Positions 7,184 through 39,838 of a stretch of 53,856 bases of DNA are shown here, piece by piece. The stretch is from a virus (taxonomy: Duplodnaviria > Caudoviricetes), in the IMG/VR virus record IMGVR_UViG_3300025110_000018, positions 1 to 53,856 of that record; one strand, 5' to 3'. A program made the position numbers and the translations under genes. How positions within the stretch are numbered: the first letter of the stretch is position 1; every line of letters starts with the position of its first letter. A model generated the notes under the pieces. That model was not told the origin of the DNA and did no database searches. It worked only from the letters and a program-made list of their open reading frames with translations.

Positions 7184-9120
7184 TATTTTATTTCACCCCA
7201 ATTAGGACCAGACTCATAATCAACTTTGTTAGGTACTTCCAAGTCAACCGCATTTTCCATTATGTCTTTTATTTTATTAGCTTGTTCTTCTGATTCAATA
7301 GAAAAATCTAATTCATCATGTATTTGTATATGACCTATTAAACCTTCCTTATATAGTTCTACCATTGCTTTCTTAGTCATGTCAGCTGCGCTACCTTGAA
7401 TTAATTTATTTAAAGCTTTGTATGTAAAAGCTCTACGTGTAGCGTTTTGATGCCAGTAGTTTCGTTTTGGTTTACCATCTTTATCTTTTACAACATTACC
7501 TTCAAAGTCTTTTATGTGTGGTCCCATCTCTTGAAGTTCTAACATACGTTCATGATCTTCAGGTGGTACGTATGTTCCCCAGTCTGCTCCACGTAATACT
7601 GGTTCGTATTTAGGAAATCTGCAACGTCTACCTAATAAAGTTTTGATCTGTCCTCTAGCTTCTGAAGCTTTCATAACTTTGTTCATTAACTGTTTAACGA
7701 AAGGTGCTTCACTGTGATATTTTGTAAATAGTTCTTCTGATTTTTCTTTTGATACTCCAAGTTCTCCTTGTAGTTTTGCTTTACCCATACCATAAAACAA
7801 ACCTAAGTTAATTGTCTTTGCTTGTGATCTTGGAATCTTAGCCATCTCTGCAACAATTTTGTGAAAGTCTGTTGATGGATCTGTCTCGTATGAATCTGCA
7901 ATTTTATTTACAGATGGTAAAGAAAATTTTAAAGCATAGTGTGCAACAAGTCTTGGTTCCTGTTGCGAGTAATCAAATGTTCCCCACTTACAACCTTCTT
8001 CAGGTATAAATAAACTTCTAAGTAAAGGCCCTGTTTCCGGATCCCTGGCAGGTATTTGCTGTAGGTTTGGATTCGAATAACTAAATCGTCCTGTAACTGT
8101 ACCACCATCATCAGATCTTATTTGGTTTATATCTGCATGGATTCTACCATTGTGTTCGTGTTTTAAAATAGTATCTATGAATGTAGTTCTAACCTTGTTT
8201 ATTTTTCTTGCTTCTGCTATCATGTTAACTACAGGATTAGCATGATTAGAAATAAAATTTTTAGTAAATGAAGGAGAGTTTGTCTTTTCAGTTCGGGTAT
8301 AAGGTAGCTTCAGTTTGTCAAAAACTTTCGCAATACTTGCTGCAGCCCATATCTGAGTATCTACTCCTGTTTCTATTTTTACTTGTTGCAATAAGTTTTC
8401 TTCTTTTACTGCCAGTGCTGTTTTCAATTGATTGGCTTTCTCGATATCTACCCGAACACCTAGGTGGCGCATATCAACTAAACAAGGAAAGAGATCAGTC
8501 TCAAGATTAAATATATCCTGTAGGTTATCTTCTATAATTACTTTTTTTAATTTGTGCCAAAGTCTTAAAGTTAGTTCAGCATCTTTTTCAGCATAACCCC
8601 CAACTTCCATTGCAGGCATTCTCCACATATCTGCTTTTGGATCGAGTCCTCTTTCTTTTGCAGCTTGATTTAATCTTGCTTCACTCTTACCTTCACCAAG
8701 GTGATGCCAAGACAAAGTATTCAATGTATATGAAAATCTATTTTCATCAATTAATGATGATGCAATCATGGTATCTATAATTAAACCATTGATTTTTATA
8801 CCTAAATTACGTATCCAACATACGTCATACATAGCGTTATGAAATATTTTTGTAGCAGGTGACTCACAAATATCTTTGAACCATTCGATAGTTTTTTTTC
8901 TATCCATATTAGGTCCTTGTTCATGTGCAATAGGAAAATAATTTTTATAACCATCTACTGCTACAGCAAAACCTACAATCTCACCGTTACCTGATATAGC
9001 TCCAGAGCCTGTTGATTTTAAATCTGGATCACGTGTTTCTAAGTCAATTGCAATTTCATCAGCTGATCTTAGATCAGGATATTCTTTTGGTATAACCCAT
9101 TCTGTATGTGGTACTATCAT
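7183..9120 (-). CDS. polA: Family A DNA polymerase with 3'-5' exonuclease domain
   Basis: ExoI DLET, ExoII FHNAMYD, TGRFS..NPNLQQIP, motif A DYSQQEPR, motif B KTINLGLFYG, motif C IHDEL. Confidence 0.96.
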   Translation of the reverse strand: MIVPHTEWVIPKEYPDLRSADEIAIDLETRDPDLKSTGSGAISGNGEIVGFAVAVDGYKNYFPIAHEQGPNMDRKKTIEWFKDICESPATKIFHNAMYDVCWIRNLGIKINGLIIDTMIASSLIDENRFSYTLNTLSWHHLGEGKSEARLNQAAKERGLDPKADMWRMPAMEVGGYAEKDAELTLRLWHKLKKVIIEDNLQDIFNLETDLFPCLVDMRHLGVRVDIEKANQLKTALAVKEENLLQQVKIETGVDTQIWAAASIAKVFDKLKLPYTRTEKTNSPSFTKNFISNHANPVVNMIAEARKINKVRTTFIDTILKHEHNGRIHADINQIRSDDGGTVTGRFSYSNPNLQQIPARDPETGPLLRSLFIPEEGCKWGTFDYSQQEPRLVAHYALKFSLPSVNKIADSYETDPSTDFHKIVAEMAKIPRSQAKTINLGLFYGMGKAKLQGELGVSKEKSEELFTKYHSEAPFVKQLMNKVMKASEARGQIKTLLGRRCRFPKYEPVLRGADWGTYVPPEDHERMLELQEMGPHIKDFEGNVVKDKDGKPKRNYWHQNATRRAFTYKALNKLIQGSAADMTKKAMVELYKEGLIGHIQIHDELDFSIESEEQANKIKDIMENAVDLEVPNKVDYESGPNWGEIK

Positions 9121-9191
9121 ATTAATCTACTCCAAAAATAAATAGTCATTAATGTATAAAAAAATAAATCATGCACTGCAAATTGATTCAC
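9117..9191 (-). CDS. 24-aa hydrophobic bridging ORF
   Basis: GTG start overlaps the upstream stop (GTGA) and its TGA overlaps the polA ATG (ATGA); VNQFAVHDLFFYTLMTIYFWSRLI. Confidence 0.5.
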   Translation of the reverse strand: MNQFAVHDLFFYTLMTIYFWSRLI

Positions 9192-37677: not shown

Positions 37678-37962
37678 TTATTTATCTATAAGTAATGTTG
37701 CACCTGCAATATTTGTGATAGTAGAAACTTTCATTCCTCCAGGAAATAATATTCCATCTTCTGGAATATTAAATGCAAAAACATCTCCTGTTGGACAGTC
37801 TCCTTGAAATAAAGTTGTACTATCAGTATTGTCTTGTAGAATTATTGAACCTGCACCGCCACCATCAGAAGCAAGAATAAGTCCTCTTAGTCTTGTTCTT
37901 CCAGCGAATACTGCGCCCGTTCCTGCAACTCTTACTGCTTTTACGTCACCTTTTGCCGCCAT
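37678..37962 (-). CDS. Small structural protein
   Basis: 94 aa, AGGAG SD, IPEDGILF motif. Confidence 0.65.
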   Translation of the reverse strand: MAAKGDVKAVRVAGTGAVFAGRTRLRGLILASDGGGAGSIILQDNTDSTTLFQGDCPTGDVFAFNIPEDGILFPGGMKVSTITNIAGATLLIDK

Positions 37963-37976
37963 AGTTTTCTCCTATT

Positions 37977-38003
37977 AAAATTGTGTGGGCCCGAAGGCCC
38001 ACA
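37977..38003 (-). terminator. Rho-independent terminator with C(UUCG)G tetraloop
   Basis: Minus strand TGTGGGCC-TTCG-GGCCCACA followed by CAATTTT. Confidence 0.75.
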
Positions 38004-38014
38004 TTAATTATTTA

Positions 38015-38293
38015 TTACGATGCAGATATGTTTGCTAACGTGTCTAATCTTTTCCAGTTTGTACCATCTGAAAAAGCATAAACAGCTGAGCCTGCTGCAC
38101 CATCTTGTACGTAAACTAATACACCTTCATTAGCAGATGCTTCAAGACTATTAGTTCCGTCTGTGATTGTGTTAGCGTCTGTAACTGTATAAGGAGTTTT
38201 TCCACCTTGTTGGGTGTCTCCTGCGTTAACGTTAGGTCCACCAATAAAACCATTTAATGATGTTACCGGTCCTGTAAATGTAGTGTTTGCCAT
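38015..38293 (-). CDS. Small virion protein (possible capsid fibre or decoration)
   Basis: MANTTFTGPV N-terminus, ..AFSDGTNWKR; AGGAGG SD. Confidence 0.7.
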   Translation of the reverse strand: MANTTFTGPVTSLNGFIGGPNVNAGDTQQGGKTPYTVTDANTITDGTNSLEASANEGVLVYVQDGAAGSAVYAFSDGTNWKRLDTLANISAS

Positions 38294-38299
38294 AATTGT

Positions 38300-38375
38300 A
38301 TCCTCCTAGTTTCCGAACATAGTCTCTAGGCCGTCGACTATACGCGTCTATGTTCTAATTTAATTGTATAGTAAA
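38300..38375 (-). ncRNA. Structured RNA element (double pseudoknot), possibly related to the Mu-gpT-DE motif
   Basis: Three interleaved perfect helices of 7, 8 and 5 bp in a GC-enriched intergenic stretch downstream of the capsid gene. Confidence 0.6.
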
Positions 38376-38378
38376 GTT

Positions 38379-38407
38379 TTTATATACTAGTTTTTAGTAG
38401 AGTGCAA
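38379..38407 (-). promoter_or_regulatory. Sigma70-type promoter preceding the structured RNA
   Basis: TTGCAC, 17-nt spacer, TATAAA; predicted start near 38372, at the first helix. Confidence 0.5.
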
Positions 38408-38455
38408 GAGAGCCTGTGATGTGGAGTGGATTTTTTCCAACGATGTAGCTTTTTA

Positions 38456-38680
38456 TTAAGTAGCTACAGAAACTTGTGGAGCAATGGCATCAACTTTATT
38501 TCTAAGGTGGGCTTCTTTGGCCTCAGCCTTTTTTATATGTTGAACGATCTTTTTAACTTGGTCGTCGATCCTTACCATATTCAAGGTATATCTACCTTGA
38601 TTAAGATGCTCTTGCTTCCATTTTAGGTCCAGTGTCTCCTTTTGTTTGTAGAGATCCTGGATGTGCGGTTGCATCGTCAT
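38456..38680 (-). CDS. Hypothetical protein
   Basis: 74-aa helical ORF; GAGG upstream. Confidence 0.6.
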   Translation of the reverse strand: MTMQPHIQDLYKQKETLDLKWKQEHLNQGRYTLNMVRIDDQVKKIVQHIKKAEAKEAHLRNKVDAIAPQVSVAT

Positions 38681-38873
38681 TTATAACCTCCTCATAGGTT
38701 ATTCTGTACTTGTTGGAGTCAAATACATTTTCTCCAACATATTCCCATTTTATATCATTTAGTCCTAGTTTGTCAACTATTGCTTGCTCGAGGGAAACTG
38801 CATCATCGTTAGATGATACTATAAATTTTGCATAATGACCGTACGCGTTTATGGTAACTGTAAATTTTTTCAT
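38601..38873 (-). CDS. Hypothetical protein
   Basis: 90-aa ORF following the capsid hairpin. Confidence 0.6.
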   Translation of the reverse strand: MKKFTVTINAYGHYAKFIVSSNDDAVSLEQAIVDKLGLNDIKWEYVGENVFDSNKYRITYEEVINDDATAHPGSLQTKGDTGPKMEARAS

Positions 38874-38935: not shown

Positions 38936-39838
38936 TTATGCACCTGGTGATGCGAAAATACCTCTAAAGTCAGATACACCAAATGAGTATCTTTCTCTAG
39001 CTTTGTATCTCACGTTACCAGTATCGAAGTCGCCTTCCATAGCCGTTTTAATTGGGCTTCTGTCAAACATCTTCATACCGTTAGGCACGTCAGTTAAGAT
39101 GTAGAACGCATCTGGGTCTGTTAAGAAATTGTTCACTCTGTAACCTTGAGGAACCATTCCCATAGACACGATTGCGTTAACATCGTTGTCTGCTGTTCCG
39201 ACTCTACCTTGAGATTTCATTAATCTCTCAGCTGTGAATTGAAGCTCAGAAGGAATAATCATTTTTGTACCTCTTGCAGCAATTTTTAGACCTCTTTCGT
39301 CTGTCATTGCAGCAATGTCAATTAATGATTGCTCTAATGAAGTTTCATTTAAGTCAGCAGCCACTGCTAATGTGTTTGATACAGTTCCACTTACAGTTGG
39401 GTGGTTAGTTGCAAATAATGCAGAACCATCACCTGAAGTGAATGTACCGAAACCATTAATCAATGGATTAACAGCTTTAACTTGTTTAGTGTTCGCCATA
39501 GATCTAGCTAATGCTTTAGTATATCTACTAGCAAGTCTGTCATACAAGTTATCCTCAATTGCTTCTTCAGTTATAGAGAAGGCAAGAGCCACAGTTTCGT
39601 GTGTATATCTTGCAGTGAAAGTCTCTTGAGCATTGTCAAAAGTTACTCCACTTCCTTCTGGTTTAACTTGAGCTTGAGCGAAACCTGATAACATAACTTC
39701 TTCTTCAAACGCTCTGTCTGAAGATTCAGTAGTGTATATTTCAGCATGCTGATTCTCATAACGTTTATATTCCAGGCCGAATAAAGCATTCAAACCTGGC
39801 TCTAGTTCTTTAACTAGTTGTCCTCTTGATATCGCCAT
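38936..39838 (-). CDS. Major capsid protein (Mu gpT-like family)
   Basis: MAISRGQLVKELEPGLNALFG..ITEEAIEDNLY..RYKARERYSFG; AAGGAG SD; 3' hairpin; position after the scaffold gene. Confidence 0.9.
   Translation of the reverse strand: MAISRGQLVKELEPGLNALFGLEYKRYENQHAEIYTTESSDRAFEEEVMLSGFAQAQVKPEGSGVTFDNAQETFTARYTHETVALAFSITEEAIEDNLYDRLASRYTKALARSMANTKQVKAVNPLINGFGTFTSGDGSALFATNHPTVSGTVSNTLAVAADLNETSLEQSLIDIAAMTDERGLKIAARGTKMIIPSELQFTAERLMKSQGRVGTADNDVNAIVSMGMVPQGYRVNNFLTDPDAFYILTDVPNGMKMFDRSPIKTAMEGDFDTGNVRYKARERYSFGVSDFRGIFASPGA

Follow-up and report, generated by a model that had tools for sequence, protein, structure and literature searches.

Why should a phage place an intricately knotted RNA immediately ahead of one small gene? 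The question is raised by the stretch preceding gene 38015-38293 on the minus strand of IMG/VR record IMGVR_UViG_3300025110_000018, a Caudoviricetes sequence of 53,856 nucleotides (nt) with an estimated completeness of 87%, all of which we refer to here as the window. An initial annotation had described at this position three interleaved perfect helices that together form a double-pseudoknot RNA leader, lying between a promoter and the ribosome-binding site of the gene and able to occlude its Shine-Dalgarno (SD) sequence. All of the helix coordinates match, and comparison with related phages shows by covariation that the structured leader with its two pseudoknots is genuine and that it is located as described. 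As judged from these sequence comparisons, the element is a real, well-supported class of structured RNA that belongs to the HTVC023P-type pelagiphages and their relatives.

The whole motif spans about 68 nt (38372-38305, minus strand) and comprises four helices, H1, H2, Hx and H3, with the arms in the order H1a, H2a, Hxa, H1b, Hxb, H3a, H2b, H3b; H1 thus crosses H2, and H2 crosses H3. The fold that comparison of relatives reveals is most simply viewed as a hairpin, H2, whose large loop pairs with both of its flanks. H1 is the pairing of the predicted first transcript bases with the loop of the mini-hairpin Hx, which itself sits inside the H2 loop, and H3 is the pairing of a second H2-loop segment with the bases just ahead of the ribosome-binding site. 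When the 90-nt stretch is shuffled 3000 times with its dinucleotides preserved, a set of interleaved, perfectly Watson-Crick-paired helices with lengths of at least 8, 7 and 5 base pairs (bp) never arises, and a single one of 3000 such shuffles attains a summed helix length of 20 bp. Calculated duplex energies in the window are −5.6 kcal/mol for H1, −9.4 kcal/mol for H2 and −4.7 kcal/mol for H3, with −8.6 kcal/mol for the SD paired to the anti-SD sequence. The nested minimum-free-energy (MFE) fold of 38290-38400 is no better than that of shuffles (z = +0.55) and recovers only H2; nested folding cannot see pseudoknots, for which such a score is to be expected, and the structural evidence is comparative.

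A search with the 92-amino-acid (aa) product of the gene identified 80 viral contigs at 45-93% identity, nearly all of which have the element just upstream. For the main clade (A1) we aligned 60 leaders, 58 of them distinct, and scored a structure consisting of H1, H2, H3 and one extra pair. Standard pairs are formed in 97.8% of the 1338 cells, compared with 85.9% in shuffles, with 0 of 500 shuffles reaching the observed value, and 14 of the 24 pairs show changes on both sides (Table 1). When the registers are shifted by one to three columns, only 25-45% pairing is left. The extra pair, G 38345 with C 38336, extends to 2-4 bp in other clades (UG/CA, AG/CU, AGG/CCU), and Hx is therefore a genuine fourth helix.

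A second scan, using the 74-aa protein of a related locus (L070) as the query, added 56 unique leaders that fall into several sequence classes, and these distant clades have the same layout built from different helices. For example, one class has GGGC/GCCC, GCUUUGUAG/CUACAAAGC and UUGCAUA/UAUGCAA, another has CGGG/CCCG, GUGAAUCUG/CAGAUUCAC and ACAUGC/GCAUGU, and a third has CUAGG/CCUAG together with GUGCGUCGG/CAGGCGCAC; further classes exist. The 5′ arm of H3 in other clades is GUAUAG, UAGUAG, UUGCAUA, ACAUGC or ACAAGC, each accompanied by a matching partner. In a clade of 15 leaders (A6), 93.3% of cells are paired and H2, Hx and H3 together contain six pairs with both-sided changes; H1 pairs in only 76% of cells there with no both-sided change, because MAFFT displaced four to five CUAGG-type rows of this alignment by one column. 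In a clade of 38 leaders, scored with H1 left out as its 5′ arm is unaligned, 99.0% of cells are paired and there are four both-sided pairs, a count matched by 209 of 500 shuffles, while the cell count and the covariation score are matched by none. MAFFT likewise failed to register the H1 5′ arm in clade B1, and H1 was excluded from the A5 count.

A junction-anchored script, which takes the best complement and makes a few doubtful picks for H1, parses 188 of 194 unique leaders into the four-helix layout; three of the six failures have more than one mismatch in H2, and the other three (L142, L153 and L156) are truly without the motif. The parsed leaders contain 32 distinct arm pairs for H1, 112 for H2, 12 for Hx and 15 for H3, and when arms are combined across variants, full pairing results in only 5.6%, 2.8%, 11.1% and 8.3% of combinations, respectively. 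The helix pairs include 4223 Watson-Crick pairs, 237 G-U pairs and just four A-C pairs, and the folded strand is therefore the sense RNA, with no action at the level of DNA. Across these very different helices about 14 junction bases are near-invariant: the closing G of H2 leads into AC, Hx is succeeded by GAC and then one or two purines, and the C that begins the H2 3′ arm comes after AGA or A. The second junction reads GACGG, GACG, GACA, GACAG or GACGA in 185 of 188 leaders, and the third is AGA in 148 and A in 38; the first is AC in all 188, but AC is demanded by the parser. Among the first 80 viral contigs with an exact match to a 14-mer of the core, 79 have the whole motif (73 caught by script and six by eye), the remaining one being a chance match.

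The phages concerned include cultured ones. The capsid region of the window is 74% identical to Pelagibacter phage HTVC027P across 76% of a 2.9-kb query, and further matches to it come from HTVC023P, from 023Pt_psg01, a metagenomic phage, and from DSL-LC04, a lake phage. Passages of PMC9599517 count the single-virus genome vSAG 37-F6 among phages of this kind. HTVC027P has the arm pair ACUGUAU/GUACAGU; HTVC023P has CCUAG/CUAGG in H1, UG/CA in Hx and GUAUAG/CUAUAC in H3; and DSL-LC04 has CUAGG/CCUAG in H1, a closing pair of H2 that is U-A and not G-C, and UAGUAG/CUACUA in H3. In HTVC023P (L082 3605-3699) the H1 and H3 arm sequences appear exchanged relative to those of the window, which could be a sign of pseudo-symmetry in the fold or of modules having been exchanged. 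A different kind of variation is found in 023Pt_psg01 (L163 2960-3052), which keeps H1, a 10-bp H2 and H3 with the junctions AAC, GAU and GUAAU replacing GAC, GAC and AGAC; its leader is in effect a natural core mutant. In L142, L153 and L156, about 85 nt ahead of a gene start at 1501, two plain hairpins replace the double pseudoknot (MFE z of −2.5 to −3.0), the second of which has a GACA loop and a CCUC paired with part of the SD.

R1, a covariance model of the main clade, finds one copy of the motif in the window, at 93 bits, and one in each related locus. It misses the distant clades, which were recovered through the protein instead. A second R1 match in L002 and L003 (29.8 bits) consists of a terminator and a ribosome-binding site, and we reject it as a second copy. 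The runner-up within the window itself (19 bits; 9118-9158, minus strand) matches in the flanks only (TATA, ACUAU about 8 nt further on, GGAG and AUG), without a structured insert; it is perhaps one more promoter of this type whose start sequence is similar.

Table 1. Positions in the window of the leader, its flanking signals and the gene that follows; counts of pairs changing on both sides refer to the 60 aligned leaders of clade A1.
Feature	Position	Strand	Remarks
−35-like hexamer TTGCAC	38407-38402	minus	Predicted; read by eye
−10-like hexamer TATAAA	38384-38379	minus	17-nt spacer after −35; 6 nt before H1; read by eye
H1 5′ arm ACUAUAC	38372-38366	minus	4 of 7 H1 pairs change on both sides
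Loop L1, A/U-rich	38356-38365	minus	Length variable, 4-13 nt in 186 of 188 leaders
H2 (helix)			8 of 11 pairs change on both sides
H2 5′ arm GAACAUAG	38355-38348	minus	Final G is the near-invariant closing base
Junction J1 AC	38346-38347	minus	Reads GAC with the closing G; invariant in A1; kept in DSL-LC04
Hx, G with C	38345 (5′ side), 38336 (3′ side)	minus	GC 51, CG 4, UA 3; never unpaired
H1 3′ arm GUAUAGU	38343-38337	minus	Inside the loop closed by Hx
Junction J2 GACGG	38331-38335	minus	GAC invariant in A1
H3 5′ arm CCUAG	38330-38326	minus	1 of 5 H3 pairs covaries (GC 53, AU 4, GU 1)
Junction J3 AGA	38323-38325	minus	Reads AGAC with the C at the start of the H2 3′ arm; invariant in A1
H2 3′ arm CUAUGUUC	38322-38315	minus	Pairs with GAACAUAG
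Loop L3 GGAAA	38310-38314	minus	GGA may lengthen H2 beyond one mismatch
H3 3′ arm CUAGG	38309-38305	minus	Overlaps the SD
SD AGGAGG	38307-38302	minus	First 3 nt within H3
ATG of the 92-codon reading frame	38293-38291	minus	
Gene for 92-aa acidic protein	38015-38293	minus	N-terminus MANTTFTGPV
Intrinsic terminator	37975-38003	minus	8-bp G+C-rich stem and UUCG loop (hairpin 38003-37984), A/U-rich tail

The leader is flanked by signals that would make it the 5′ end of a short transcription unit. The case for a promoter depends on conservation of the −10 box: a hexamer resembling TATAAT (at least five of six positions) ends 5-9 nt, and mostly 6 nt, before H1 in 129 of 187 leaders, compared with 3.6% at random positions in the same loci. 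In 106 of 188 leaders there is a TTGC or TTGA 27-48 nt ahead of H1, and some clades have a terminator and a TATAAT in place of the −35 region. A consensus promoter scan omits the site at 38407-38379 (its rule demands a T at the last −10 position), and the pattern TTGC-N18-21-TATAWW occurs in the window about as often as expected (7 times, against 6.3). As the −10 box lies about 6 nt before H1, the fold most likely begins at +1, and we infer that the transcript begins at the first base of H1 (38372). The initial annotation had a promoter start transcription right at helix 1; conservation in relatives upholds the −10 box, and the start site itself is a prediction. Its UUCG terminator closing the unit is found by the terminator scan, and the gene thus has a terminator of its own.

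Metatranscriptome contigs from four runs in four studies cover the motif and the first codons, although we do not count them as evidence, and contigs cannot reveal transcript ends. Word depth peaks over 38228-38359, a peak that coincides with the best-conserved stretch and may stem from relatives. In the bins 38272-38315 and 38316-38359 the depths are 467 and 351 for X1, 74 and 50 for X5, and 17.6 and 9.9 for X3, and in the bin 38360-38403 they drop to 11, 2.8 and 2.9, respectively; X2 deviates, with 8.8 and 42.6 in the first two bins, 0 in the third, and 64.4 at 37964-38007.

At its other end the leader is tied closely to the start of translation. In 171 of 188 leaders, 9-12 nt separate the end of H3 from the AUG. 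The SD-like tetramer begins 3 nt within H3 in 133 leaders and 1-2 nt within it in 28, whereas in 22 it begins where H3 ends and in four 1-3 nt past that point; the one remaining leader has no such tetramer. In six variants CUAGG is followed by four A's and then GGAG, placing the SD 4 nt beyond H3. Across the leaders, then, a position of H3 next to the SD is the conserved trait; SD masking is not. The proposed occlusion is accordingly borne out only in part. H3 covers 3 nt of the SD in the clade of the window, but in other clades it ends 0-3 nt upstream, and 4 nt upstream in some variants; moreover H3 alone is weak, at −4.7 kcal/mol against −8.6 for the SD/anti-SD duplex.

The element is always found upstream of one gene family, with the N-terminus MA.TTF.GP, located after a capsid gene related to Mu gpT; in the 73 motif loci caught by script with the core 14-mer, the open reading frame (ORF) starts with MA or MG, any residue, T or S, any residue, and F. 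These ORFs range from 69 to 330 codons and share about 20 N-terminal residues followed by unrelated C-terminal parts, and the proteins are acidic (isoelectric point 4.1-6.1 in 72 of 73). L165-L244 illustrate the pattern, having an identical leader 14-mer and the same N-terminus of about 20 residues with C-terminal domains that differ widely (69-330 aa). The sequences suggest a family that combines a conserved anchor with surface modules that can be exchanged.

Database comparisons reveal little about the short protein itself and somewhat more about its longer relatives. Neither the 92-aa protein nor the longer relatives match a family in Pfam or PHROGs, phmmer finds nothing for the protein in the PDB, and a tblastn search of phage records with the 92-aa sequence gives no match. 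Its structure model is a small beta domain (predicted local distance difference score, pLDDT, of 82) with no Foldseek match in the PDB at E ≤ 0.001. For a model of a 172-aa relative (pLDDT 69) the top match is the Pa223 capsid spike, from a Pseudomonas phage (Foldseek E = 1.8e-5; template-modeling score 0.43), and against a viral library this relative matches fiber- and spike-type proteins. The gene in the same position in DSL-LC04 is annotated as a cement protein; passages of PMC10611076 name nr, CD-search and HHpred as methods. It is plausible that the product sits on the capsid surface as a spike or decoration protein and has a conserved anchor.

The capsid gene of the window (38936-39838) matches Pfam Phage_capsid_4 and Mu-like_gpT (PF10124, 33.7 bits; cut-off 20.1). 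The leader lies 564 nt downstream of it with two small ORFs between, and directly downstream of the capsid gene in L070 and in DSL-LC04. The two ORFs, which overlap on the minus strand (38456-38680, 74 aa, phrog_36395; and 38601-38873, 90 aa), are kept in L002 and absent from the L070 clade. On the other side of the short gene, further virion-type genes follow on the same strand; the next gene (37678-37962, minus strand, 94 aa) starts right past the terminator with its own ribosome-binding site, and its L002 counterpart is 93 aa long.

Mu-gpT-DE is an RNA motif located downstream of gpT-like capsid genes, and the initial annotation had raised the possibility that this leader is an instance of it. 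The likeness is in the setting, since the leader too is found in phage DNA downstream of a Mu-gpT-like major capsid gene; the differences are that the leader is about 68 nt long where the model (RF03012) has 53 positions, that it adjoins the start of the next gene, and that the model does not match. With a gathering score of 49 bits, RF03012 gives no match at E ≤ 10 in the whole record or in L070 2700-3100, none at E ≤ 1 in seven more loci, none at the gathering score in 20 related loci, and in five related phage records only chance-level matches of 9.4 and 8.1 bits, both elsewhere. Because the setting fits and the model does not, we do not file the element under Mu-gpT-DE, the comparison being one of model score and genomic setting.

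The remainder of Rfam 15 is likewise without a match to the leader. There is nothing in the whole window at gathering scores and nothing at E ≤ 10 on 38150-38550 (401 nt), nothing at the gathering score in the 20 related loci, and nothing relevant in the distant clades; weak matches in L070 and seven further loci are terminator hairpins that resemble small RNA families. In the literature we searched, nothing joins pelagiphage with pseudoknot, and none of the matches listed joins it with riboswitch, noncoding RNA or RNA motif; nor does a phage element feature in the papers found on exoribonuclease-resistant RNA, bacteriophage and RNase J. The class is therefore new to Rfam 15 and not found in the literature searched. 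In general terms it corresponds to a cis-acting 5′ leader, being a conserved sense-strand structure between the promoter and the start codon of one gene.

What does such a leader do? In well-studied bacteria, a paired 5′ end slows 5′-end-dependent decay by RppH, RNase E and RNase J. By analogy, we favor, with a probability of roughly 40%, a hard-wired cis-acting leader that caps the end of the messenger RNA (mRNA) and tunes the translation of a capsid-surface protein. The gene would be expressed from a short, separately transcribed mRNA with 38372-38305 as its leader, and a start at the first base of H1 would leave this mRNA without a free 5′ tail, with its end closed by H1 and its 5′-dependent decay slowed. 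The core would be held together by the three conserved GAC-type junctions, and H3 would place a rigid knot against the SD, covering 3 nt of it here and so setting the rate at which ribosomes load. Together the two effects would ensure that a protein required in high copy number late in infection is supplied stably and at a set dose.

Several observations lead us to this reading. The terminal position is indicated by the distance of the −10 box from H1, and the link to translation by the distance of H3 from the AUG, while a virion role in many copies is suggested by the position of the gene after the capsid gene and by the spike-like fold of the 172-aa relative. That the leader is hard-wired is favored because 023Pt_psg01 keeps the helices without the conserved junctions, because three leaders use plain hairpins instead (one pairing CCUC with the SD), and because the element is restricted to one gene family; in addition, an acidic product is a poor binder of its own RNA, so that self-regulation is unlikely.

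There are also points that weigh against it. The decay pathway is that of well-studied bacteria, and SAR11, or the host of this virus, may differ. A plain hairpin would suffice for protection of the 5′ end, and the knot is more elaborate than needed; this elaboration, together with the near-invariant junction bases, points rather to a pocket for binding or to a tertiary device of some precision, and favors the existence of a partner, be it a ligand, a protein or the ribosome. The overlap with the SD is not conserved across clades. Finally, although one metatranscriptome contig starts exactly at 38372, another extends 21 nt further upstream.

A serious rival, in our view somewhat less probable, is a translational switch, in which a factor acting in trans, be it the 30S subunit, a protein of the phage or its host, or a small molecule, would stabilize or open H3, and the knot along with it, and so alter access to the SD. 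The models for such a switch are pseudoknot riboswitches and ribosomal-protein operators. The SAM-II, SAM-V, preQ1-II, preQ1-III and guanidine-III riboswitches are pseudoknots that hide the SD, and the leader resembles them in having the 3′ strand of a pseudoknot helix at the SD and in the conservation of unpaired core bases; near-invariance of the junctions while the helices vary freely would fit a switch, as would the position of H3, which always adjoins the SD and overlaps it by 3 nt in most leaders. H3 is also weak on its own, like ligand-stabilized pseudoknot helices, and the unrelated leaders of three phages likewise pair part of the SD. The leader differs from these riboswitches, however, in having four helices and two pseudoknots, in serving one structural gene only, and in an SD overlap that is not conserved, several clades being without it; and the Rfam pseudoknot riboswitches (SAM-II, SAM-V, preQ1-II, preQ1-III, guanidine-III, fluoride and others) give no match at E ≤ 10 in the 401-nt stretch. 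The leader also serves a single structural gene family and not a regulon, no conserved alternative fold is seen (the only alternative in the window, an H1b/H2b pairing, is impossible in the other clades), and one phage keeps the helices without the conserved junctions.

A similar comparison can be made with leaders that respond to proteins. The S4 site of the Escherichia coli alpha operon, the S15 site of rpsO and the leader of T4 gene 32 are all protein-responsive pseudoknots, and like them the element is a pseudoknotted 5′ leader reaching the ribosome-binding site of one specific gene. It shows no sequence or model match to them, and its gene's own product is acidic, which speaks against a switch operated by that product.

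Less likely, in our view, is a new kind of phage RNA device, either a nuclease-resistant lock on the triphosphate end of the mRNA or a pocket for a metabolite or the ribosome. As described in passages of PMC7603331, the exoribonuclease-resistant RNA (xrRNA) xrRNA1 of Zika virus folds so as to block 5′-to-3′ nucleases including RNase J1, and its pseudoknots (2-3/43-44 and 30-33/53-56) cross each other on a three-way junction. Judged against that description, the leader is similar in that its 5′-most bases are tied into the fold by one pseudoknot while a second latches sequence on the 3′ side; it differs in that its H1 and H3 are not mutually crossing and a three-way junction is absent, a comparison made at the level of pairings. 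Lacking both the mutually crossing pseudoknots and the three-way junction, the leader is not a member of the flavivirus type. If the lock reading were true, the leader would be a counterpart in the bacterial world of viral nuclease-resistant RNAs, and its message could survive the destruction of RNA during pelagiphage infection; on either form of this proposal, the three GAC junctions would build a tertiary core that has no precedent among solved RNAs.

We consider it improbable that the leader is a processive antitermination RNA like HK022 put, in which the nascent leader would bind RNA polymerase and allow it to read through the terminator hairpin at 38003-37984 into the virion genes. The arrangement is suggestive, with the leader directly after the promoter, a terminator behind the short gene, and more virion-type genes downstream on the same strand, but the fixed distance between H3 and the AUG would have no role, the motif is at no other promoter in the window, and it matches no antiterminator family in Rfam.

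Still more improbable is a self-cleaving double-pseudoknot ribozyme that processes the 5′ end of the mRNA, even though the pseudoknotted fold is complex and its unpaired bases highly conserved. Ribozymes of the hepatitis delta virus (HDV) type share with the leader a double pseudoknot, a similar size and a first helix at the 5′ edge, but in the leader the 3′ arm of H1 is in the Hx loop and not after P3, there is no P4, and H3 is an extra pseudoknot on the 3′ side. As the helix order departs from the nested P1-P2-P3-P1.1-P4 arrangement and no Rfam ribozyme family matches even at E ≤ 10, we reject membership in this group; furthermore, with a conserved −10 box some 6 nt ahead of H1 there would be nothing to remove, and, as a weak argument, metatranscriptome contigs pass through the motif. 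Lastly, although the arms are inverted repeats in DNA too and CTAG is itself palindromic, a protein-binding DNA element or a chance arrangement has a negligible probability given the compensatory changes in all helices, the shuffles, none of which gives such a helix set, and the asymmetry between G-U and A-C pairs, which identifies the sense RNA as the sole pairing strand and contradicts both. The probability that is left goes to functions other than those considered here.

Covarying folds with conserved junctions that are comparable to this one have earlier proved to be riboswitches, ribozymes or protein-binding operators. The element described here is kept ahead of one virion gene by relatives of the ocean's most abundant SAR11 phages and by freshwater relatives. 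It is short, and with natural variants available for every helix it is directly testable. Two cultured phage-host systems carry it, HTVC027P and HTVC023P on HTCC1062, and for HTVC027P passages of PMC12753301 report RNA sequencing during infection. If the leader does protect or dose a late mRNA, it would bear on how virion genes are expressed in a slow-growing host with a streamlined genome.

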